A stretch of 36,714 bases of DNA from contig CAYMPD010000011.1 in NCBI GenBank assembly GCA_964392445.1, forward strand, positions 1 to 36,714, read 5' to 3'. The notes under the pieces were generated by a model, which was not told the origin of the DNA, searched no databases, and saw only the letters and a list, made by a program, of their open reading frames with translations. Positions 2,926 through 36,714 of this stretch are shown here, piece by piece. Source of the stretch: an uncultured archaeon. Its GTDB lineage: Archaea > Aenigmatarchaeota > Aenigmatarchaeia > CG10238-14. The position numbers and the translations under genes were made by a program. Numbering within the stretch: position 1 is the first letter of the stretch; each line of letters begins with the position of its first letter.

Positions 2926-4290
2926 TTAGGAAATTAAATTAAACCCGAATGCAGTTAAAAATACTATCAATAGAATAATTATACCTGTCAATATTTTATC
3001 AGTTAGTATTTTCTCTACTATATTTTTATTTTCCCATATTTGGTTGAATTTTTTAAGAGACCTATCAGAGGCGAAATATATATTTTGAATAAACAATCTT
3101 CTCGGAATAGCATGTTCCAAGCAAACAGGATTTTGAAGTAGGTAATCTATTTTTTTATGATAAGCGCATAAGATTTTACCACAGACTGGACATAAATACT
3201 TGTTTTTATCGAAAAATGTTTTATTCCTACCACAAATTATACATTTATTGAGTTCATTTTTCGTATAAAGTAGCTTATTTTGATTACAGAACAAAACCTG
3301 CTCATAATTATTATCAATTATATTAATTTTATTCTCGAATTTAGGTAAATAAATTGGGAATGTCTCAGTTATCTTAATGTCCCTAAATTTTGGTTTACAA
3401 ATTTTATTATACTCAACATTATTTCCCCCTACATATCTTACGTTTTTTGTGTATTTCCTTATGATTAAATTAATTGCTTTCTCTTCAAGTTCATTCTCGC
3501 TAAATTCGAAAGGTATTATTTTTTCCTCCTCCTTTTTATTTAAATGCCTCAAATTTGGAAAGGATTGGAAAAATAGATTATAATATTTTGAGTCAAGTTC
3601 AGATAAAGAATTAGCCTCCAGAACTATCCTCTGATTAGCATTATTCACTTTATATATACGTCCCACATTTGTGCTTATTGAGGAATTTACATCATAATGT
3701 ATACAATAAGAAGGAATTAAGCCCAATTCACTCTTTGATTTTAAGAAGTTGGTATCTGAACCCAAAATTTTCTTAAATTCCCTCTCTATGACTTCTTTCA
3801 TTTCTTTTTTATTAATATGTTCTACGACATCATGGGCAATTACTTGTATTTTTCCGTTAAATATGATTATACCATTATCTTTACATATTTTTCTTAATTT
3901 TTTCCCATCTATTAATTCTATTTCCATCTGATTTTTATAGTCCCTGTTAATTTCATCAACATAACTTTTGACAGTGGATGAAAATTTACCAGAAGTAACT
4001 ACAATTCCTTTTATGTAGGGGCTACTCCTTTTCTCATGTAGCATTGCTCCTTGGAGTTTTTGAATAACGGGTCTGCCCACAGATTCCTTATGTTTACATT
4101 CAACAACTACAGGACAAGAAATATCACCCTTTTTATAGGTCATTAGAATATCTTTACCTTTATCATTTACTCTATCTGCAATTTTAACATTATAATAACC
4201 TATTTTACTCATAATTTTTGCTACTAAGTCTTCAAACTCAAACCCAGAAAGATTATCGATATCAAGACGGGATTTTTTTGGTTTTGACAT
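2926..4290 (-). CDS. Mrr-type PD-(D/E)xK nuclease with C-terminal Zn finger and transmembrane anchor
   Basis: N-terminal Mrr_cat motifs GFEFEDLVAKI...DKGKDI...VECK...VGRPVIQKL...GIVVTSGKFS...LIDG. C-terminal CxxC..CxxC..CxxH..CxxH and hydrophobic tail ILTGIIILLIVFLTAFGFNLI. Confidence 0.8.
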   Translation of the reverse strand: MSKPKKSRLDIDNLSGFEFEDLVAKIMSKIGYYNVKIADRVNDKGKDILMTYKKGDISCPVVVECKHKESVGRPVIQKLQGAMLHEKRSSPYIKGIVVTSGKFSSTVKSYVDEINRDYKNQMEIELIDGKKLRKICKDNGIIIFNGKIQVIAHDVVEHINKKEMKEVIEREFKKILGSDTNFLKSKSELGLIPSYCIHYDVNSSISTNVGRIYKVNNANQRIVLEANSLSELDSKYYNLFFQSFPNLRHLNKKEEEKIIPFEFSENELEEKAINLIIRKYTKNVRYVGGNNVEYNKICKPKFRDIKITETFPIYLPKFENKINIIDNNYEQVLFCNQNKLLYTKNELNKCIICGRNKTFFDKNKYLCPVCGKILCAYHKKIDYLLQNPVCLEHAIPRRLFIQNIYFASDRSLKKFNQIWENKNIVEKILTDKILTGIIILLIVFLTAFGFNLIS

Positions 4291-21056: not shown

Positions 21057-22205
21057 ATGTGTTTATTTAAAAAATTTTCAAAAAAACCTACTGATTCAAA
21101 GAATATGAAACAAGAGATAGGAGATCAGGGATTATCGATTAAACTAACAATTGAAAAGGAACTAGAAAATATCAAGGAAATTTCAAAAAAAGTAAAGAAA
21201 TCGGGTAAATTCATTTTCTCGGGTTGTGGAGATAAATACATAGTTCCTTTAGCTTCAGAATATTTGTGGAAAAATATTTCAAAAAAACCATTAGATGTTC
21301 TTCAATCCTGGACATTGAAGAATTACCCACCAAAATATCTTGATAAAAATACTTGTATAGTCCTCGTGAGCCAATCTGGTACAACTTATGATACGGTTGA
21401 AGTTTGTGAACTTGCTATTGAAAAAGGTTGTAATGTAGTCGCTTTAACAAATCTTAAGGAAGACAAGGATGGTAGTTTAGTTGAATTATGCGAAGATTAT
21501 GAAAAAGGTTATGTTATGAGGATGCATACTAAAAGCTATCCAGAAAGATCCTTACCTAGTACAGGTTCTTTTCACTCATCACTCGCAGTTTTAAATTTAT
21601 TCACACTCTTTGTCAATGGTAGCCCCGACGAATTTCTTCATTTACAAACTAATTATATCCCAAAAATTGTTCATGAATTAAGTACTTTAGATGGAATTAA
21701 AAAGTGGGCTGGAGAATATTCCCAAAAGTTGAGAAAATTCGATAATTTTTATGTGGTCGGTGATGGTCCGAGATATACTGTTGCAAGAAAACAAGCAAGA
21801 ATAATGATGATGGAGGGAGTTAAAACTAACGCATGTGATGTTGAAGGTGAAGAATTCGTACATAGTCTTATTGAAACGCTTGAATCCAAATCAAATCCTC
21901 TAATTTTACTTAAACCTTTAATTGATTGGAAAGATTCGTTTCAGGTTTTTAAAATGGTTAAGAAATTCTGGGGAAAATATTCTGATAAAAATATGGTTGT
22001 TATAATTGATCCTTTCCGATACTTGGGTGCGAAATCAAGACAATTGTTTTCAGGTATAGAAGGAAATATTTTATCTCCATTTTTGTATGCCCCCCAGCTC
22101 GAATGGTTGAGTTATTATCTCGCCTTAGAAAAAGGGATGGATCCAAGTATTGGTACTTTAGTTAAAAAAGTTAGAAGTGAAGCGGAGATAAAAAGTTTGA
22201 TATGA
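21057..22205 (+). CDS. Double-SIS-domain sugar-phosphate isomerase/deaminase family protein
   Basis: FSGCGD, VSQSGTT.DT, ALTN, PST.SF, second SIS VGDGP..E..EEF.H. No glutaminase domain. Start may be ATG 21105. Confidence 0.8.
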   Translation: MCLFKKFSKKPTDSKNMKQEIGDQGLSIKLTIEKELENIKEISKKVKKSGKFIFSGCGDKYIVPLASEYLWKNISKKPLDVLQSWTLKNYPPKYLDKNTCIVLVSQSGTTYDTVEVCELAIEKGCNVVALTNLKEDKDGSLVELCEDYEKGYVMRMHTKSYPERSLPSTGSFHSSLAVLNLFTLFVNGSPDEFLHLQTNYIPKIVHELSTLDGIKKWAGEYSQKLRKFDNFYVVGDGPRYTVARKQARIMMMEGVKTNACDVEGEEFVHSLIETLESKSNPLILLKPLIDWKDSFQVFKMVKKFWGKYSDKNMVVIIDPFRYLGAKSRQLFSGIEGNILSPFLYAPQLEWLSYYLALEKGMDPSIGTLVKKVRSEAEIKSLI

Positions 22206-22250
22206 GAACCTTTATTTAATGATAAAACGATAATATGGTTTAGATTTATT

Positions 22251-23717
22251 ATGCCTTCAGTAGTATTGTGTTTTGAAGTTCATCAGCCCTTTAGAGTTAA
22301 CCATTTCTCGGTCAATGGATGTAGTCTAACACAAGAGAAATACTTTGATCAGTTCTTTAACAAAAATCTTAACAAGTTCATATTCGATCGGGCATCTAGG
22401 AAATGTTATCTACCTACAACCGACACAATTCTAGAGTTGGTAGATACATTCAAAAAAGAGAAAAGAAAATTCAAATGTGCATTTAATCTTTCTGGGGTCT
22501 GGTTAGAACAATGTGAAAAATGGCAACCAGATTTATTAGAGAATTTCAAACAGTTATCAGAATCTGGCATGGTTGAATTTCTGGGAAGTACTTACTTCCA
22601 TTCTCTTGCCGGATTGTTTAAGAATCACGATGAATTTAGGGAGCAGATAAAAATGCAGACTCGAGCAATTAAAGATTATCTAGGTCACAAGCCAAGGAAC
22701 TTTGTAAACACCGAAATGTTGTATAATAACCTGATTGCAAAAACAGCTGAAGAGCTAAAATTCAAATCAATATTTACTGAGGGAACTGAGAGGGTACTTG
22801 ATTGGAGATCCCCAAATTATATATATGCTAGAGGACCCGTTAAAGAAAATGATAAACCTCTTAAAAAAAGAATAAAAGTTCTAACAAGGAATTACAGATT
22901 AAGTGATGACATCGGTTATAGGTTTTCTTCACGAGATTGGAATGAATGGCCTTTAACTGCTGAAAAATATTCTGTTTGGTTATCTGCTACTAATGGACAA
23001 TATATTAACATTTTCATGGACTTCGAAACATTCGGGGAACATCAACCTGATGATTCAGGAATATTCTTTTTCCTGAAGGCTTTACCTTGGAAAATTTTTG
23101 AATGGAAAAATCTTGATTTTAAATTACCATCGGAAATTGTAAAAGAAAAGGATCCTGTTGCTGAATTAGATGTACATGAGAATAATACGGTTTCATGGGC
23201 AGATATGGAAAGGGATAATTCTGCCTGGCTTGGAAACTCGATGCAAAAGATGGCTTTCGAAGAACTGGTGAATGTGGAATCTTTGGTAAAACAAAATGGT
23301 AATAAATTACTGAGGTTTTGGAGGCTTTTGCAACAGAGTGATCATTTCTATTATATGTGTACTAAGAGGTGGGAAGACGGGGATGTTCACCATTATTTCT
23401 CGCCATTTTCAACTCCCCATGACGGTTTCATTAGTATGATTTCTGGAATTTCTGATATAAAGGTAAAACTTGCTAAGGAGTTAGGAAAAAATGAAGTGCT
23501 TAATGGGAAGAAGAAAAAGAGTTTGAAGAAAGTAAGTAAAGGTAAGAAAAGAATATCCAAGGTAAAAAAAGAAGTAGAAGATTTGAAAAAAATTAAAACA
23601 CCCTTAAAACCCAGATCTGAGATTGATTTCATCATGAACGAAAAAGTAGCTTATCCTACAACCAAAATTGAAAAGGAAAAATTAGAGAGAATTTCACAAG
23701 ATTTTAAAAGACGATAG
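22251..23717 (+). CDS. GH57 alpha-amylase-type hydrolase (no. 3) with Lys-rich C-terminal tail
   Basis: FEVHQP, TYFHSL, NTEMLY, MDFETFGEHQ, SWAD.ERD.SAWLGN.MQ, SDHFYYMCTK. Confidence 0.9.
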   Translation: MPSVVLCFEVHQPFRVNHFSVNGCSLTQEKYFDQFFNKNLNKFIFDRASRKCYLPTTDTILELVDTFKKEKRKFKCAFNLSGVWLEQCEKWQPDLLENFKQLSESGMVEFLGSTYFHSLAGLFKNHDEFREQIKMQTRAIKDYLGHKPRNFVNTEMLYNNLIAKTAEELKFKSIFTEGTERVLDWRSPNYIYARGPVKENDKPLKKRIKVLTRNYRLSDDIGYRFSSRDWNEWPLTAEKYSVWLSATNGQYINIFMDFETFGEHQPDDSGIFFFLKALPWKIFEWKNLDFKLPSEIVKEKDPVAELDVHENNTVSWADMERDNSAWLGNSMQKMAFEELVNVESLVKQNGNKLLRFWRLLQQSDHFYYMCTKRWEDGDVHHYFSPFSTPHDGFISMISGISDIKVKLAKELGKNEVLNGKKKKSLKKVSKGKKRISKVKKEVEDLKKIKTPLKPRSEIDFIMNEKVAYPTTKIEKEKLERISQDFKRR

Positions 23718-23718
23718 A

Positions 23719-25956
23719 TTATAATTTTCTTAACTTTCCAATCAAACCTTTCTCAGATTCAGCAACAATTCTTCTAGTCTTATCTACGACATCAGGGTTA
23801 ACTGAAATGCTAGTAATACCCCACTTGACTAACTTTCTCGTTAACTCGGGATAAAAACTGGGGGCCTGACCACAAATAGAACTAGTAATGCCATTTTTCT
23901 TACAAGCCTTAACAACACGTTTAATACACCATAATACCGCAGGATCCTGTTCATAGAACCATCTTTTCATCGTTCTAGAATCCCTGTCAGTAGCAAGAAC
24001 GAATTGTGTTAAGTCATTTGTTCCGATTGAAATGCCGTCTATGCCCTCTTTTATAAAATCTTCAATGAGTATAGCAGAGGAAGGAACTTCGACCATTATC
24101 CATAACTTGAATTTTTTATCTTCTAGAAGCCCCGCATGCCTAATCAACATTTTAATTTGTTTTAATTCCCAAGTTGTTCTCACAAATGGTATCATTAACC
24201 ATAGATTATCGTAACCTTCATCTCTTACTTTTTTGATTGTCTCAAGTTCTAACTTAAAGAGTTTTGATTCTGTGATATAACGGGAAGCTCCCCTCCAACC
24301 TAACATTGGGTTTGACTCTTTGGGTTCGTATTTCTTACCTCCTTCAAGATTAGCATATTCATTTGTTTTTAGATCAAGTGAGCGATAAACGACGGGTCTT
24401 GGGTGGAAAGTCTTCGCAACTTTCTTGATTCTTTTTGAAAATTCTTTTACTATCTTTTCTTCATCCCCCTTCTCGATTAAATAGTTAGGATGTTTTCCTA
24501 ATTCTGCGACCATAAATTCTGCACGTAAGAGACCAATACCATCACAATTGACGTTCTTGTATTTTTTAGCAAGGTTTGATTGACCCAGATTCATGTAGAT
24601 TTTTGTTTTGGTTTTAACATTTTTTGTTTGAGTCTTTTTCTTTGATTTTGCGGGAAATTTACCCAGATAAACTAGTCCGTCATCGCCGTCTATTGTTATA
24701 ACATTACCATTTTTCAACTTCTTTGTCGCTTTTCCAGTACCAACCACGCAAGGAATTCCAAGTTCTCGAGCAACAACAGAAGTATGAGATGTTTTACCTC
24801 CTTCATCTGTAATAAGTGCTGAAATTTTTCCCATGGCTGGAATATAATCGGGATTTGTCATCTTTGCGACAAGAACATCACCATTTTTTATTTTATCCAA
24901 TTCATGGGGATCTTTTATTATTTTAACCTTCCCAGAAACAACCCCTGGTGAAGCGGGTATTCCCTTTATTATTGGTTTTTCCTTAGTTGCAACATCCTCT
25001 CCTTCTTCTTTTTTATAAACGACATTAATAGGTCTTGATTGTATCAAATAAAGTTTACCGTCTTCGATGGACCATTCAAAATCTCGAGAACCTTGATAAT
25101 ATTTTTCTAACTTCAATGCTAGGTTGTATAGTTGATTTAGTTGGTAATCACTTATGACCTCTTTCTTTTGTTTACTTTTAGGTACTTTTTCAGTTTTTAA
25201 TCCACCTTTTTTACTAATTATTTTCATCTTAGCTTTTGTTTTAATTTTTTTATCAATAATTTCACCGGTTCTCTTATCAATTACATATCTATCTGGGGTT
25301 ACATATCCTGATGTTATGCCTTGACACTGCCCCCAAGAAGATTCTATTATAATGTTATTCTTCCCAGATGAGGGATCTACAGTAAAGCCAAGCCCAGATT
25401 TGTCTGAATTTAATTGTTTTTGTACTACTACAGCAACTGAAACTTTTCTATGACTCATTTTCTGTTTTTTCCGATAGAATATTGACCTTGCTGTGAAAAG
25501 AGATGACCAGCACTTTTTAACTGATTTGATGACTTCATCTTCGCCTTTAACATTAAGAATAGAACTAGCTCCAGGTAAATCCTCTATTGTTGAAGAGCTT
25601 CTAACAGCAACCCACTCGGATTTTTTTCCGAATTCTTTTGACAATTTTTTATAAGAAGAGATGATTTCATTTTTTATTCGATGAGGTACTTCTGTTTTTT
25701 CTATTAATTCAAGGATTTTATCTGAACTCTCCTTTAATTGATCGGAATCGTTAATGTCGGTTTTTTTCAGGATATCAAATATTGCAACTTTAATCTGAGT
25801 TTTTTCGAGGAAATATTTGTAAGCCTTAGTATTGATAACAAAAGCATTGGGAACGGGTAAATCCATATTATACATTTCTGCTAGATTTTCCCCTTTTAAC
25901 CCTACTTTTGATGAACTTTTCTTTGGGATTTCTTTTAAAAATTTTACAAATCTCAT
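23719..25956 (-). CDS. ppsA: Phosphoenolpyruvate synthase-like protein
   Basis: His domain TDEGGKTSH..VARELGIPCVVG; PEP domain GLLRAEF, NPMLGWRG, MVEVPS, SIGTNDLTQ, ICGQ. True start is MRFVKF at 25956; the ORF-track extension overlaps the divergent gene. Confidence 0.88.
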   Translation of the reverse strand: MRFVKFLKEIPKKSSSKVGLKGENLAEMYNMDLPVPNAFVINTKAYKYFLEKTQIKVAIFDILKKTDINDSDQLKESSDKILELIEKTEVPHRIKNEIISSYKKLSKEFGKKSEWVAVRSSSTIEDLPGASSILNVKGEDEVIKSVKKCWSSLFTARSIFYRKKQKMSHRKVSVAVVVQKQLNSDKSGLGFTVDPSSGKNNIIIESSWGQCQGITSGYVTPDRYVIDKRTGEIIDKKIKTKAKMKIISKKGGLKTEKVPKSKQKKEVISDYQLNQLYNLALKLEKYYQGSRDFEWSIEDGKLYLIQSRPINVVYKKEEGEDVATKEKPIIKGIPASPGVVSGKVKIIKDPHELDKIKNGDVLVAKMTNPDYIPAMGKISALITDEGGKTSHTSVVARELGIPCVVGTGKATKKLKNGNVITIDGDDGLVYLGKFPAKSKKKTQTKNVKTKTKIYMNLGQSNLAKKYKNVNCDGIGLLRAEFMVAELGKHPNYLIEKGDEEKIVKEFSKRIKKVAKTFHPRPVVYRSLDLKTNEYANLEGGKKYEPKESNPMLGWRGASRYITESKLFKLELETIKKVRDEGYDNLWLMIPFVRTTWELKQIKMLIRHAGLLEDKKFKLWIMVEVPSSAILIEDFIKEGIDGISIGTNDLTQFVLATDRDSRTMKRWFYEQDPAVLWCIKRVVKACKKNGITSSICGQAPSFYPELTRKLVKWGITSISVNPDVVDKTRRIVAESEKGLIGKLRKL

Positions 25957-26053
25957 ATTACATTCCTTAATTAATTTAGTATTACATAGAAAATAGTTTT
26001 TCGTAAGATTTTTCTTTAAGTTCTCAAAAATATTAATTATTAGTTGATTGGTT

Positions 26054-27001
26054 ATGGATGTTGCTGTAATCGGCTCTGCTATGCTTGACACTATTATTTA
26101 CACGAACAGACTGAAGAAGTTCAAATTAAGGAGAAAACAGTATTTAGGCTTCCCATATTCCTCAAAAACAGAAATTGAGAATCTAAGGTTCGATGTCGGT
26201 GGTTCTGGTCATAATATTGCTGTTGGTCTTTCAAAATTGGGAAATAAAGTAAATTTCATCGGTAGAATAGGTGATGATCCAAATGGTGAAATGATACTTA
26301 CTAATTTCAAATCTGAAGGGGTTGATACGACTTATCTTAAGAAAGATGAGGACAAAATGACAGGATTTTCTCAAATATTCATAACACCTGATGGGGAGAA
26401 GAGCTTATTGACGTATAGAGGTGCTAATAACAGTTTAATCCCAGAAGATATACCAGACTCAATTGAAAATGTCAAATGGTTTGTTTTCACTACTGTAACA
26501 AGTGATCAGACAGTTAAAGCTGTGAAAAAATCGGTGGAATTAGTTAAAAGAAGTGGTGGTAAAATATTAGCAAATCCTAGTATAACTATGGTAAGACACA
26601 GGAAAAGAGAATTAATGAATCTGATAAGAAATTCAGATATAGCTATTATGAACAAGGAAGAAGCTTGTGAATTAACTGGTACAAGAAATGAGAAGAAAGG
26701 GTTAAAAAAACTATTAGAATTAGGAGTTAAATCGGCTGTTGTTACTTTGGGAAAAAATGGAATAATAGGTTCTGACGTAGAAAATAGTTACAAACAGAAA
26801 CCTTACAGGGTTAAAATTAGAGATACAACAGGCGCAGGAGATGGTTTTACTGCAGGATTTTTACATTGGTTGATGAAAACTGGTTCATTCAAAGAGTCAT
26901 TGATGTTTGGTAATGCTACTGCCGCATTGAATATCGAAAGTGTTGGTGCAACGAAAAACTTACCTTCTGAAAAAGATATAATTAATTTGATGGGAAGATG
27001 A
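26054..27001 (+). CDS. PfkB-family carbohydrate kinase (no. 2)
   Basis: GGSGHNIAVGLSKLG, IGRIGDD, VTLG.NG, DTTGAGDGF, GNATAA. Confidence 0.9.
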   Translation: MDVAVIGSAMLDTIIYTNRLKKFKLRRKQYLGFPYSSKTEIENLRFDVGGSGHNIAVGLSKLGNKVNFIGRIGDDPNGEMILTNFKSEGVDTTYLKKDEDKMTGFSQIFITPDGEKSLLTYRGANNSLIPEDIPDSIENVKWFVFTTVTSDQTVKAVKKSVELVKRSGGKILANPSITMVRHRKRELMNLIRNSDIAIMNKEEACELTGTRNEKKGLKKLLELGVKSAVVTLGKNGIIGSDVENSYKQKPYRVKIRDTTGAGDGFTAGFLHWLMKTGSFKESLMFGNATAALNIESVGATKNLPSEKDIINLMGR

Positions 27002-27194: not shown

Positions 27195-27521
27195 TTAAAC
27201 TTCTATACCTTCCTCTAATGCTTGTCTAACTATCGTGACTTCATTCTTCATTTTTTCAAATTCTTTTGGTGTATAGCAGATAAAATCGACAGGGAAATCC
27301 TTTTCTTGTTCCACATGCCATTCCCATGAAAGTTTTGACATAAATTTACTTTTTTTCCTTATTTTATTGGAAATTACTAACAAGTCTATATCACTCCACT
27401 TATGAGTTCTTCCAGTCGCAAAAGATCCGAATAGAATAATTCTCTCTATACCAAATTTCTTAGCAATTCTTTTTTTGAAATCCTTCACAAGTTCTAAAGC
27501 TTCAGATTCTTTTCTACCCAT
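27195..27521 (-). CDS. Minimal nucleotidyltransferase (MNT)
   Basis: LFGSFATG..SDIDLLVI (GS-x10-DxD), VDFI..TP.EF. Confidence 0.92.
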   Translation of the reverse strand: MGRKESEALELVKDFKKRIAKKFGIERIILFGSFATGRTHKWSDIDLLVISNKIRKKSKFMSKLSWEWHVEQEKDFPVDFICYTPKEFEKMKNEVTIVRQALEEGIEV

Positions 27522-27859
27522 TTTTTCACCTTTTCACCCTTATTGATTATTTCTCTTGCTGTTTTCTTATTTATCTCTTCTTCCATATCAGGATATCTTG
27601 AAATCGTATAAAAAGGGCTGATGTCTTTACAAGAAGTCAAAATTTCCTTTGGTGCGTTAAGTTTTTTAGCAATACTCAACAAGTCATGAATTTTATCAAA
27701 ATCATCTGATTTTTCTATTTGTAAAGCTTTTAGAGATTTTTCAACAGACTGTTGAACTAAAAAAGTGACTAACTCATAATTTTTTCCATCAAAATTATAT
27801 TCTGCATTTTCCAGATCTTCTATCGCCTTATCAAACCATTTTTTAGACTCTTGTTTCAT
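27494..27859 (-). CDS. HEPN domain protein
   Basis: A.EDL..A, QQSVEK.LKAL, HDL, SRYPD; overlaps the MNT start. Confidence 0.9.
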   Translation of the reverse strand: MKQESKKWFDKAIEDLENAEYNFDGKNYELVTFLVQQSVEKSLKALQIEKSDDFDKIHDLLSIAKKLNAPKEILTSCKDISPFYTISRYPDMEEEINKKTAREIINKGEKVKKWVEKNLKL

Positions 27860-28075: not shown

Positions 28076-28846
28076 ATGTTATTCAATAAAAAACAAAAAA
28101 GAATGAATAAAATAATAAACCCAAAAACTGGTAAAGGTGTACTTCTAGCATTTGATCATGGGGTTGAACACGGGCCTGCTGAATATGATGGTATAGACAT
28201 AGATCCCCTCCGAATAGCAAAGATAGCAATAGGGGGAAATGCCAATGCGTTGATTGTTCATCCGGGTTCTGCCAGATACATAAGAAAATTCATTAAAAAA
28301 TTACCTCTGATAATAAAACTAACTGCTAGAACTAATTTAGCTCATCACAAGTTACAATCTATGACCGGGACTGTGACTGAGGCTGAAGCACTTGGTGCGG
28401 TTGGCGTGGCTTGTACTATTTATGTTGGATCTAAACAAGAACATATTATGCTTGAAAATTTCTGTAAAATTAAAGAAGATTGTAGAAAAAGAAAGATGCC
28501 ATTGGTTGGATTTATGTATCCCAGAATTAAAGGTAAAAAATCTACTAAAACTAAACATGTTAGATATGCTGCAAGAGTAGGTGCTGAACTTGGATTGGAT
28601 GTAGTTAAAACTTATTACACAGGCTCATCAGAATCGTTCTCAAAGGTTGTTAAAGATGCTAATTTTGTCCCTGTTGTTGCTGCAGGTGGAGGACCAAAGG
28701 ATAACGAGTTAGAAGTTCTAGAACTAGTCAGAGAAATAATGAAATCTGGTGCCTCAGGAATGGCTATTGGAAGAAATATTTGGACAAGGGATAAAGGTAT
28801 GTTTGTTTTAGATCACGTACAGAAGATCGTTCATGGGAGGAATTAG
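28076..28846 (+). CDS. fba: Class I (DhnA/archaeal-type) fructose-bisphosphate aldolase
   Basis: AFDHG.EHGP, IKL, MYPR, RVGAELG.DVVKTYY (Schiff-base Lys), AAGG, GRNIW. Confidence 0.9.
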   Translation: MLFNKKQKRMNKIINPKTGKGVLLAFDHGVEHGPAEYDGIDIDPLRIAKIAIGGNANALIVHPGSARYIRKFIKKLPLIIKLTARTNLAHHKLQSMTGTVTEAEALGAVGVACTIYVGSKQEHIMLENFCKIKEDCRKRKMPLVGFMYPRIKGKKSTKTKHVRYAARVGAELGLDVVKTYYTGSSESFSKVVKDANFVPVVAAGGGPKDNELEVLELVREIMKSGASGMAIGRNIWTRDKGMFVLDHVQKIVHGRN

Positions 28847-29518
28847 ATGAGATTACCAATAATTATCATCAATTTCAAAAGTTATGCAGAAGGTACGGGA
28901 AAAAATGCTGTTAAATTGGCTAGAATCTGTGAACAGGTTTCAAAGGAATATGATGTTAATATTACTGTCGCCCCACAAGATACAGATATATTCCGTGTAA
29001 GTTCTAAGGTTGATATTCCAGTATTTGCTCAGAGTGTAGAACCTATTGAACCGGGTGCACATACAGGTCATGAGTTACCATTAGCTGCAAAAGAATCTGG
29101 GGCCGTTGGGACATTAATAAATCATTCCGAAAATAGATTAACCCTTCCACAGATAGGCCAGAGTATTTGGATTTCGAGAAACAATGGTTTGAAAACAGTT
29201 GTTTGTGTCCCTGATTTGGACTATGCAAAAAAACTAATAGAAGAAGATCCTGACTTTTTAGCTTATGAGTTTCCTGAACTAATAGGAACTGGTAGACCAA
29301 TATCAAAAGAGATGCCTGATTCCGTTAAAAAATTTGTAGATATTGTTTCTGAATCTGAGCCTGAAATAATACCATTATGTGGCGCGGGTATATCGACAGG
29401 TAAAGATGTAGAAGCAGCATTGAAATTGGGAACGAAAGGTGTGATTGTAGCTTCAGCGGTGGTAAAATCAAATAAGCCTAGAATGGTATTGGAAGACCTA
29501 GTAAAGAGAATAAAATAG
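28847..29518 (+). CDS. tpiA: Archaeal-type triosephosphate isomerase
   Basis: INFKSY, GAHTG, LINHSE, AYEFPELIGTG, LCGAGI, VASAVVK. Confidence 0.95.
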   Translation: MRLPIIIINFKSYAEGTGKNAVKLARICEQVSKEYDVNITVAPQDTDIFRVSSKVDIPVFAQSVEPIEPGAHTGHELPLAAKESGAVGTLINHSENRLTLPQIGQSIWISRNNGLKTVVCVPDLDYAKKLIEEDPDFLAYEFPELIGTGRPISKEMPDSVKKFVDIVSESEPEIIPLCGAGISTGKDVEAALKLGTKGVIVASAVVKSNKPRMVLEDLVKRIK

Positions 29519-34689: not shown

Positions 34690-36714
34690 TTGGGGGTGGA
34701 CAATATAAAAAATGTTAGTTTAGATAATCCTAGAAAATCTACCTCTAATCATATTTTTAACAGAAGGTCCCATGTCTATCCCCAATTGGGTCCTTCTGGT
34801 TTTTCCTTTGATTTAAAGAAAGTGATATTACCCTTATTAGTAGTCATCTTAATAGTAACATCATCAATTAAATCCCAATTATCGGAACTTCAAGAAGAGA
34901 AGAGCACAAAAATTATTGAGAATGATTTATCTGGATCGATAAGCCCACATTTAGGGGAAAACCGAAGAAATCTAATGAGTGAAAAAAATAAATATCAAAA
35001 TAAAAGTGTTGAGAATATAACCAACAAATCGACTACAACAGTTATTCCCATAACTAAAACAACTGTGGTTCAAACGTCAACTACAACTAAAACAACATCA
35101 AGTTTGGAAATATCTACTTCCACTTCAACGACTTCTGTTATTGGTGAATTCACATCCACAATGATAACTTCAACTTTAGATTCCAGTACAACTTCTACAC
35201 AAATGATTACCCCCGAAAGCAGCACTACCTTAGACCCAACAAACTCTCAAGTTACATCCACGTCAGTGGTAATTACTCCCACATTAGATACTAGCACAAC
35301 CTCTACTGTAACAACAGCGTTAGATCCCACAACAACTATAGTCACTCCCATACTAGGCCCTACCACTACTGAAAGATCAACTACAACTAAAACAACATCA
35401 AGTTTGGAAATATCTACTTCCACTTCAACGACTTCTGTTATTGGTGAATTCACATCCACAATGATAACTTCAACAACCAAAATCGAGGATAATACTGAAA
35501 AAGTAATTACAAGTACCACGATTAGAGAAAAAGAAAAAATACGATCAGAAGAATTAGAGTTAGTTCAGGAAAAAGCTGAGATAGGTAGATATGTTAAATG
35601 GGAAAAGCATATCTCTGTGAAAAACAAACAGCAAATTAGAGCGGAGAGAATAGTAGAATTTGAAGTACCGTCCCAATCTAAAAATGTTGAAGTTAAAGGG
35701 AAAGTAAAATTACTATCAAAAATTGTAAGGGAAAGAAAGATTCGTTCTAAAATTATGAGAAATGTGGATAAAGACTACAAAGTTATTAGATTTTCAGATG
35801 ATTTTGAACCATCTGAAGAAAAGATATATACCATTAATTTTGAAACCCCCGCTCCGGAAAAAATAGAAAGCCCTCCAGAAGAGAAAGAAGGTAAATGGAA
35901 AAAGGAAATTAAAGTGGTTAGTGATGATTCTTTACATTACAAGGATGTTCTGAGTTATACTGATATTAAAGAATCCGAAAGAGAAAGAATTCATCTTTAC
36001 TGGATGATTGATGGTGAAAAGGTGGATGTCATAGATGACCCGAGATTTAATGTTAAAATGATTGATACCAATGATAATGGGCTGATCGACAGACTGGAAT
36101 GGATTGTTCCTGAGTTGTCAGAGCAGACTTTTGTTGTGGAGATTGATATTACTGTTCTTAATCCTTACACCTACTTGCGAGATGGTGAAACCTGGACAGT
36201 TGCTTTCAATACTACTGGTACTGCTGATCTGACTATATCTTCTCCTAATGCTGGTTGGACTGAGTTATTGACGGATAATCCTGACACTTTTGACGAGATG
36301 GAATTCTTGGATTTGAGATGTGGGGAGGAATCTCTGAAAGATAGTTTGCAACTGATTGATTTTGAAGGAAATTACTATAATTATGATGAATTAACTGAGC
36401 AGAGTTATATTGATGTTGAAAAATTCTTGATAGAGGACTACACCTGCCAGGAAACAGGTTACTTTTCCAACTACATGCATAAGGCTGGTTATGCTACACT
36501 GAAATTTGAATATAGTAGCGAGAATTATTCGGTTAGTGATTATGCTTATGATCCTCCTCAGTGGTCTGGTAATAAAACTAGACCTATGAATGATGCCCAA
36601 TATTCACCACATCAATCTTATCAGTTCAACATCACTTGGGCGGAGATGGATGACGCAGTCCTAATAGAACACAACTTCACTGGATCATCCACACCACACA
36701 ACGACTCATTCACT
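34690..36714 (+). CDS. Large membrane-anchored surface protein, N-terminal part (runs off window)
   Basis: Frame open from TAA 34681-34683 to the window end (about 675 codons). TTG 34690 or GTG 34696 start, TM KKVILPLLVVILIVT, Thr/Ser stalk, then VKW.K, ETPAP, DTNDNGLID..EW.VP.LS.Q.F, W.V.FNTTG.A.L. Confidence 0.85.
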   Translation, partial: MGVDNIKNVSLDNPRKSTSNHIFNRRSHVYPQLGPSGFSFDLKKVILPLLVVILIVTSSIKSQLSELQEEKSTKIIENDLSGSISPHLGENRRNLMSEKNKYQNKSVENITNKSTTTVIPITKTTVVQTSTTTKTTSSLEISTSTSTTSVIGEFTSTMITSTLDSSTTSTQMITPESSTTLDPTNSQVTSTSVVITPTLDTSTTSTVTTALDPTTTIVTPILGPTTTERSTTTKTTSSLEISTSTSTTSVIGEFTSTMITSTTKIEDNTEKVITSTTIREKEKIRSEELELVQEKAEIGRYVKWEKHISVKNKQQIRAERIVEFEVPSQSKNVEVKGKVKLLSKIVRERKIRSKIMRNVDKDYKVIRFSDDFEPSEEKIYTINFETPAPEKIESPPEEKEGKWKKEIKVVSDDSLHYKDVLSYTDIKESERERIHLYWMIDGEKVDVIDDPRFNVKMIDTNDNGLIDRLEWIVPELSEQTFVVEIDITVLNPYTYLRDGETWTVAFNTTGTADLTISSPNAGWTELLTDNPDTFDEMEFLDLRCGEESLKDSLQLIDFEGNYYNYDELTEQSYIDVEKFLIEDYTCQETGYFSNYMHKAGYATLKFEYSSENYSVSDYAYDPPQWSGNKTRPMNDAQYSPHQSYQFNITWAEMDDAVLIEHNFTGSSTPHNDSFT
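35077..35474 (+). repeat. Exact 98-bp direct repeat (35077-35174 and 35377-35474)
   Basis: Identical copies exactly 300 bp apart, encoding STTTKTTSSLEISTSTSTTSVIGEFTSTMITST. Confidence 0.95.

Follow-up and report, generated by a model that had tools for sequence, protein, structure and literature searches.

Archaeal phosphoenolpyruvate (PEP) synthases (PpsA; models TIGR01418 and NF005057), such as those from Pyrococcus furiosus (8a8e) and Staphylothermus marinus (9dae), are built of an ATP-grasp domain, a swivelling His domain and a PEP domain. The gene studied here lies at 23719..25956 (-) in the 36,714-nucleotide contig CAYMPD010000011.1 of an uncultured archaeon, and this whole stretch of DNA is called the window below. 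Its product has the same domain order and shares with archaeal PpsA the catalytic His, the PEP-site residues, the Lys, the Arg and the Mg ligands, with about 44-51% identity in the PEP domain. It differs from them in the loss of the FAGQQx segment of the ATP-grasp domain, in the motifs GLK and GQCQ, in the substitutions T132S and A124I, and in changes near the His. These features would best be explained by an active enzyme running from PEP to pyruvate, in which the phosphoryl group passes from PEP to His391 and then to an adenine nucleotide, and in which the subsite for the gamma-phosphate or inorganic phosphate (Pi) was reshaped and afterwards held by selection. We give this explanation, drawn from sequence comparison, a probability of about 0.5. 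The FAGQQ-type loop is nearly invariant across PpsA, rifampin phosphotransferases and prodiginine ligases. Its clean loss under selection would be a natural experiment on the function of the loop, which may lie in gamma-phosphate binding, in Pi dependence or in triggering the swivelling.

Pyruvate, phosphate dikinase (PPDK) has the same three-domain swivelling mechanism (Foldseek E 1e-37 to 1e-43), but possesses an extra subdomain in its nucleotide-binding domain (NBD) and uses Pi and pyrophosphate (PPi). The equivalent loop of PPDK is presumably ...SMPGMMDT..., of the same length as in PpsA, with Gly101-Met103 of the Clostridium symbiosum enzyme at the ATP site. Mutagenesis of the C. symbiosum PPDK reportedly implicated this Gly101-Met103 loop at the ATP site. 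Enzyme I of the phosphotransferase system (PTS) resembles the present protein in its His and PEP domains and in the chemistry of PEP-dependent autophosphorylation, but it carries an HPr-binding domain where the present protein has a constrained ATP-grasp (PPDK_N) domain. Rifampin phosphotransferase (RPH) and HapC/PigC have a homologous nucleotide domain and were the source of the residue roles used below; they differ in the substrate domain and in the domain order, and the FAGQQ loop is kept in them.

The conserved ATP-binding residues listed in passages of the HapC paper are, in RPH numbering, K22, R117, G132, T136, Q183, I186, E217, E297, Q309 and R311 (PMC13534948). In the docking model of HapC described there, the gamma-phosphate of ATP is hydrogen-bonded to G123, which equals RPH G132, and to R311 (PMC13534948), and T136 is given as a contact of the alpha-phosphate. 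According to passages of the RPH study, K22A was inactive, and R117A and T136V lost rifampin phosphorylation and kept the partial reaction of the ATP-grasp domain (PMC4844700). By alignment, G132 corresponds to the Gly of the deleted FAGQQ, T136 to Ser132 and E217 to Gln212 of the window protein.

The gene encodes 745 amino acids plus a stop codon, with the likely start ATG at 25956 (query protein, P0001). The frame is intact; the enclosing open reading frame (ORF) spans 23719..26091 (-), with a longer, GTG-initiated version reaching up to 26091. Three Pfam domains were found in order: the NBD (ATP-grasp, PPDK_N; residues 17-321, E 7e-90; 24994..25908 (-)), the mobile phospho-His domain (PEP-utilizers; residues 357-427, E 2e-28; 24676..24888 (-)), with GGKTSH (residues 386-391) at 24784-24801, and the PEP/pyruvate-binding domain (PEP-utilizers_C; residues 439-734, E 4e-74; 23755..24642 (-)), which is fully canonical. 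Both NCBIfam equivalog models of PpsA were passed, with scores of 867.5 for NF005057 (cut-off 598) and 824.5 for TIGR01418 (cut-off 739.75). The PPDK model TIGR01828 scored 182.1, far under its cut-off of 843.45, and the Enzyme I model TIGR01417 reached 185 against a cut-off of 342, with a match that spans the His and PEP part only. The top solved relatives were the archaeal and bacterial PpsA 8a8e, 9dae and 2ols, and the nearest homologues are labelled by their sources as PEP synthases of Aenigmarchaeota (DPANN).

The HMMER alignments with 8a8e, 9dae and 2ols placed a gap of 6 residues right after 'DLPGAS', opposite FAGQQE/FAGQQD, with the junction at residues 131/132 (25564|25563). This was in agreement with the in-frame loss of FAGQQE near 25560 reported in a preliminary description of the window. 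In the residual loop R119-SSSTIEDLPGAS-S132, at 25561..25602 (-), FAGQQx is gone between S131 and S132, and the changes A124I and T132S are also found. The loop of P0001 is 8 residues long, compared with 14 in canonical proteins, and the Gly of the canonical (F/W)AG(Q)Q is deleted. The canonical GGK reads G19-L20-K21 at 25894..25902 (-), as had been described, with the catalytic Lys retained and the Gly before it replaced. Furthermore, the canonical G(L/Q)GE reads G209-Q-C-Q212 at 25321..25332 (-), and its Glu equals RPH E217, an ATP-contact residue. The earlier reading of this change, GLGE to GQCQ, holds for the sequence, but Q as the second residue is usual in Aenigmarchaeota, and only G211C and E212Q are unusual.

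Other positions of the NBD were retained. Lys21, Arg119, Asp292, Glu294, Gln306 and Arg308 are all present, and their counterparts include RPH K22, R117, E297, Q309 and R311. The ATP-grasp Mg/phosphate ligands D292-F-E294 ... Q306-S-R308, at 25033..25083 (-), are all canonical, with roles assigned from passages of PMC13534948 and PMC4844700. The positions Q179 and L182, counterparts of RPH Q183 and I186 on the adenine/ribose side, are retained or conservatively replaced. Moreover, the canonical state of the GGKTSH and PEP-domain motifs, also noted before, was borne out. The catalytic motif G386-GKTSH391 is intact, the adjacent Thr included, and the PEP-site residues R478, E480, R525, R555, E623, N647, D648 and C695 match the pattern of 165 fully canonical sequences.

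The deletion was compared among relatives and in an independent assembly. The assembly was compared with Logan contigs: that of run X1, which may be the source sample, was identical over 25200-25798, that of X2 matched only about 40 bases at <90% likeness, and X3 gave no match. Among the 119 nearest homologues covering the region, 112 had a loop of 14 residues together with GGK, and seven (P0002-P0006, P0011 and P0032) had a loop of 8 residues and lacked the second Gly of GGK in every case (7/7). All 8 deletion-bearing sequences read G[LTVK]K, compared with GGK in 112/112 full-loop nearest homologues. The deletion was present in 8/48 aligned relatives, 58-92% identical to the query. These eight sequence clusters come from separate assemblies, and the deletion was seen in the genomes G041 and G010, in the metagenome contig L032 and in Logan-derived proteins.

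In the full-length tree of 45 sequences, the 8 deletion rows formed one clade (Shimodaira-Hasegawa-like approximate likelihood ratio test, SH-aLRT, 96), nested in the Aenigmarchaeota PpsA with the canonical P0007/P0008 as its sister. In a tree of the His and PEP domains only, which shares no columns with the trait, 7/8 deletion members formed a supported clade (99), with the long-branched P0032 just outside it; monophyly of the 8 was not rejected by the approximately unbiased (AU) test (delta lnL 0.55, p 0.44). The genus of the window is mixed among species-representative genomes, with the deletion in G000 (the window's genome), G041 and G010 and the canonical form in G067. The tree, the AU test and the distribution in the genus indicate that the deletion is a single, fairly recent event, since inherited across the 58-92% identity range. 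The canonical sister PpsA of Aenigmarchaeota (P0007-P0010; G067, of the same genus) are 64-69% identical to the query and occupy the same locus with the same neighbours. Unlike the variant, they keep every nucleotide-site motif.

Clade-fixed changes were counted at sites with a conservation of 90% or more among 40 canonical relatives and with no variation within the six core deletion members. Eleven were found: 8/102 in the NBD (A124I, T132S, A151S, A158S, V189L, G211C, E212Q and V215T), 3/50 in the His domain (A378I, A393S and I394V) and 0/109 in the PEP domain, with a hypergeometric p of 0.002 for the last. A393S and I394V lie 2 and 3 residues past His391. By this distribution, the remodelling affects only the half-reaction at the nucleotide, together with the side of the His domain that has to dock onto the NBD.

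The strength of selection on the NBD was also compared. The divergence ratio, (1 - NBD identity)/(1 - PEP-domain identity), was 1.23 in the core deletion clade, compared with 1.27 for the canonical sisters and 1.41 for further canonical Aenigmarchaeota. The approximate Nei-Gojobori ratios of non-synonymous to synonymous substitution rates (dN/dS) in the NBD were 0.055-0.103 for three deletion-clade pairs, compared with 0.047-0.109 for four canonical-only pairs; for a fifth canonical-only pair, G067/G056, the value was undefined. In the six core deletion members, Lys21, Arg119, Asp292, Glu294, Gln306 and Arg308 are invariant. Purifying selection on the NBD of the clade appears as strong as in canonical relatives. 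The AlphaFold2 model, made with a 48-row alignment, had a mean predicted local distance difference test (pLDDT) score of 84.3 with a well-folded NBD, and values <50 occurred only in the residual loop 125-130, the interdomain linkers and the C-terminal tail. In Foldseek searches, the NBD model matched the ATP-binding domain of rifampin phosphotransferase (5hv6_A) with a template-modelling (TM) score of 0.89, and the PEP domain matched 8a8e (chain 8a8e_A) with 0.94. The preliminary description had called the ATP-grasp domain degenerate. This view is not upheld, as the catalytic residues are kept, the fold is confident, and the divergence ratio and dN/dS match those of canonical proteins.

A wider set of 271 proteins was classified, comprising the query, its 120 nearest homologues and, from clusters at 50% identity, 150 representatives. 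Of these, 165 were canonical in all three domains, 20 had an altered NBD with intact His/PEP residues (8 of them the deletion clade and 7 strongly degraded forms), 15 had a canonical NBD with altered His/PEP positions and were mostly intein-bearing, 37 were altered in all parts, and 34 were incomplete. Among the 150 distant representatives, all 11 with a loop of at most 11 residues had also lost His or PEP residues. Therefore, the clean short loop with all else intact is unique to the deletion clade among the sequences examined. In the literature searched, neither a deletion of the FAGQQ loop nor a loop-less PpsA was found described.

The seven degraded forms (P0149, P0150, P0151, P0155, P0161, P0164 and P0220) resemble the variant in their size of about 720-810 amino acids, in the intact TSH and PEP residues and in the replacement of the second Gly of GGK. 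They differ in that the Arg motif and/or the Mg ligands are lost, and they are 37-42% identical to the query; their loop is altered in sequence and is not cleanly six residues shorter. PpsA-like proteins of about 750 amino acids with strongly degraded nucleotide sites are numerous in metagenomes, and 7 cluster representatives keep the His/PEP residues. The 37 further metagenome representatives altered in all three domains may be pseudoenzymes. In addition, the genome G041 encodes a second PpsA, fully canonical and of 803 amino acids (L045 2363-4774, G041:C67), which is 39% identical to the window protein. It may have been acquired horizontally, may be a paralogue that was kept, or may reflect an error in binning; no such copy was found in G000.

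Inteins occupy the same loop in relatives, at DLP|S...HN|(S/T)ASFAGQQ; this site precedes the deletion point by three residues. Inteins tend to be inserted at functionally critical sites, and their placement within the loop fits such a site. The loop inteins (...AEDLP | S-I-...-T-H-N | (S/T)ASFAGQQ) were seen in L027 and L030 and in P0132, P0144, P0157 and P0165. In P0023, P0033, P0034 and P0063, the intein lies instead at the catalytic His motif. The deletion was also considered as the scar of an imprecise intein loss. This idea was unsupported, as the retained 'GAS' means that the deletion is not contiguous with the intein site.

Family searches were performed in the window's genome, which is 94.9% complete. 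Pyruvate kinase was not found in it, nor in any genome of the family (0/23), in line with the earlier remark that the cluster lacks this enzyme. PPDK_N and PEP-utilizers_C had one match each in the genome, both to the present gene, and no second PEP-utilising enzyme was found there. Accordingly, a second ppsA or a pyk gene, for which a search had been suggested, was absent from the matches. HPr (PF00381) was not found in the genome, and the control search was positive in 7/14 reference genomes. ADK-type adenylate kinase (PF00406) was not found in the genome or in any of the 11 genomes of the genera g1 (5, including G000), g2 (5) and g6 (1); it is present in 67/101 genomes of the order. No ADP-dependent sugar kinase, RuBisCO or PPK2 was found in the genome, and 2-oxoacid:ferredoxin oxidoreductases are present. 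For the canonical sister PpsA, pyruvate kinase and ADK were likewise not found in their genomes.

Within the family, ADK above the cut-off occurs only in four genomes, all in genera without a true PpsA, and the lineages g1, g2 and g6 may rely on PpsA to re-phosphorylate AMP. A general mutual exclusion of PpsA and ADK was rejected; it seemed to hold within the family and fails at the order level, where many of the 67/101 genomes with ADK also have PpsA. What stands is the result for the lineages g1, g2 and g6, in which ADK was not found. The use of PpsA in place of pyruvate kinase was already proposed for Aenigmarchaeota and Thermococcales in passages of a previous study (PMC8407114). The enzyme stands at the final step of sugar breakdown. 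On the reading favoured here, no other recognisable gene of the genome would convert PEP to pyruvate or re-phosphorylate AMP, and a working nucleotide site is argued for because of this sole position. The case is relevant to the question of how DPANN archaea with reduced genomes complete glycolysis and recover AMP when neither pyruvate kinase nor adenylate kinase can be detected. As a minor observation on the oxidoreductases, POR_N matches were found at identical coordinates in two contigs (G000:C39:6-668 and G000:C40:6-668; 199.6 and 194.9 bits), which suggests duplicated or strain-variant contigs in the assembly.

The mechanism proposed for the active enzyme is as follows. In one small clade, the FAGQQx segment, with the Gly reported to contact the gamma-phosphate, was deleted, the Gly preceding the catalytic Lys was replaced (GGK to GLK), two more nucleotide contacts were softened (T132S and E212Q) and three residues near the catalytic His were changed, with the PEP half-site left untouched. 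PEP would phosphorylate His391 and pyruvate would be released; the His domain would then swing to the NBD, where the phosphoryl group would be passed to the bound adenine nucleotide (AMP). The anatomy of the protein, its conservation in the clade, the purifying selection, the conserved locus and the fruitless search for another enzyme for PEP-to-pyruvate conversion or AMP re-phosphorylation are observations. We infer the direction of the reaction, AMP as the acceptor, and an effect of the deletion on the handling of the gamma-phosphate or Pi, which may concern kinetics, Pi dependence or product. The retention of Arg308 favours an unchanged stoichiometry. A changed one is favoured by the missing Gly contact, by a bulky Leu next to Lys21 and by the loss of charge at Glu212.

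Several points weigh against the proposed reshaping under selection. The activity of the enzyme in the deletion clade is predicted from sequence and model, and the role of the loop is borrowed from homologues (the RPH crystal structure and the HapC docking model), not from a PpsA-nucleotide structure. Arg308, the second reported gamma-phosphate contact, is retained in 7/8 members (Lys in P0011), and this fits an unchanged gamma-phosphate/Pi site equally well as a changed one. The outliers P0011 and P0032 are long-branched, with faster NBD change (ratios 1.63 and 1.52), and P0011 carries D292N, Q306D and R308K, which are chemically similar replacements; some branches of the clade may show further drift at the nucleotide site. 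In addition, dS was 1.1-2.0, near saturation, so that the dN/dS values are rough, and dS was undefined in 2/32 pair-domain estimates, including one from the deletion clade. The genome is a metagenome-assembled genome of 54 contigs, in which an absence means 'not found'. The metabolic argument would also lose force if the organism were a symbiont that takes up ATP.

The best surviving alternative is an ordinary PEP synthase, in which the loop is dispensable or compensated and the reaction ATP + pyruvate + H2O <-> AMP + PEP + Pi is unchanged. It is possible, at clearly less than an even chance. Both equivalog cut-offs were exceeded, the six residues from Lys21 to Arg308 named above are all retained, the locus matches that of canonical orthologues, and purifying selection is strong. 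However, the 14-residue loop is kept in 112/119 nearest homologues, and the 11 distant representatives with a loop of at most 11 residues had lost residues of the His or PEP domain as well. Furthermore, the deletion is accompanied by fixed substitutions next to the His and at three more nucleotide contacts, a pattern which resembles a shift to a new optimum rather than a neutral loss. The loop is also the target of inteins in relatives, and inteins as a rule tend towards critical sites.

The boldest form of the active-enzyme explanation is a PEP:AMP phosphotransferase, PEP + AMP -> pyruvate + ADP, without Pi. We regard it as doubtful. The gamma-phosphate loop is gone and the machinery for the alpha- and beta-phosphates is kept, and the enzyme may have taken on this reaction. 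Passages of a study on glucan, water dikinase describe minor reactions in which ADP donates its beta-phosphate and AMP is converted to ADP (PMC13553574), and these side reactions are a precedent for ADP/AMP chemistry in the superfamily. If this were true, a dikinase would have turned into a functional stand-in for pyruvate kinase. Each PEP would then conserve one phosphoanhydride bond, not two, and the reaction would be driven much more strongly. AMP would also be re-phosphorylated in a lineage without detected adenylate kinase. Automated annotation labels the gene plainly as 'PEP synthase', and if the stoichiometry has changed, metabolic reconstructions may contain a wrong ATP yield. An altered use of nucleotide or phosphate, one of the alternatives listed in the preliminary description, remains the most attractive idea.

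Another alternative is that the nucleotide site is dead and that the protein acts like Enzyme I or as a PEP phosphatase, passing the phosphoryl group of His391 to water, a small molecule or a partner protein. The loss of the gamma-phosphate contact and of the GGK glycine would fit this, as would E212Q, which removes a charged nucleotide contact. Moreover, such sites exist in nature, as the seven proteins P0149 to P0220 combine a degraded NBD with intact His/PEP residues. Nevertheless, it is improbable. The constraint on the NBD equals that in canonical relatives, and none of the six core members deviates at the catalytic Lys, the Arg or the Mg ligands. HPr was not found in the genome, and the neighbours are the same as those of canonical PpsA. 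In addition, with no ADK, PPK2 or second dikinase found, a dead site would leave no recognisable re-phosphorylation of AMP. The earlier suggestion of an Enzyme I-like relay to the neighbouring PfkB or SIS proteins received no specific support, since the same neighbours flank canonical PpsA and HPr was not found.

A somewhat different view is that the NBD is a regulatory sensor, for instance of AMP or ADP, which gates PEP turnover, or that it works with PPi or with a nucleotide whose base is not adenine. The conservation of the reshaped site would suit either case. However, Q179 and L182 on the adenine/ribose side speak against another nucleotide, and a sensor alone would need no conservation of the catalytic residues, so that we consider this view even slightly more unlikely than a dead site. 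An assembly artefact or a decaying pseudogene, as would be expected of a deletion unique to this assembly under relaxed selection, is refuted by the intact frame, the separately assembled contig identical over the site, the same deletion in 7 other sequence clusters and a dN/dS of about 0.07.

The surroundings of the gene were compared with those of its relatives. The window holds a supercluster of glycogen and glycolysis genes of about 29 kb (614-29518). It contains three GH57 enzymes, a debranching enzyme, glycogen synthase, PGM, GH15 and GT4 for glycogen; two PfkB kinases, an SIS protein, a DeoC-type aldolase and triosephosphate isomerase (TIM) for upper glycolysis; and PGK, GAPDH, iPGM and enolase for lower glycolysis, together with PpsA. 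A PfkB-family sugar kinase at 26048..27001 (+) is transcribed divergently from PpsA and is a neighbour kept in both deletion-bearing and canonical relatives. The DeoC/LacD-type aldolase and TIM, at 28076..29518 (+), are part of the conserved TIM-aldolase-PfkB/PpsA block. On the other side, the SIS-domain protein and a GH57 glycoside hydrolase, at 21057..23717 (+), are convergent with PpsA and are conserved in relatives. The block TIM-aldolase-PfkB <-> PpsA -> <- GH57-SIS is the same in deletion-bearing genomes (the window, L032 and G041) and canonical ones (G067 and L034), and PfkB and the aldolase adjoin PpsA in another genus too. Therefore, the variant is an in-situ orthologue, and its neighbours are uninformative about the variant specifically. 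By its position, the gene is the orthologue of the PEP synthase (pyruvate, water dikinase family) found in the glycolysis/glycogen cluster of Aenigmarchaeota.

Some further genes were observed in the window and its relatives. A nucleotidyltransferase/HEPN pair (window 27195-27859) lies between PfkB and the aldolase, where nothing is found in L032, L038 and L039. A gene like an Mrr-type restriction endonuclease (window 2926-4290) is located between GAPDH and iPGM. At the end of the window, an open-ended ORF of 675 amino acids (34690-36714 (+)) had no Pfam match. In relatives, ORFs of 1811-1944 amino acids stand beside TIM (L032 1-5433 and L038 1599-7433), with no homologue in the window.

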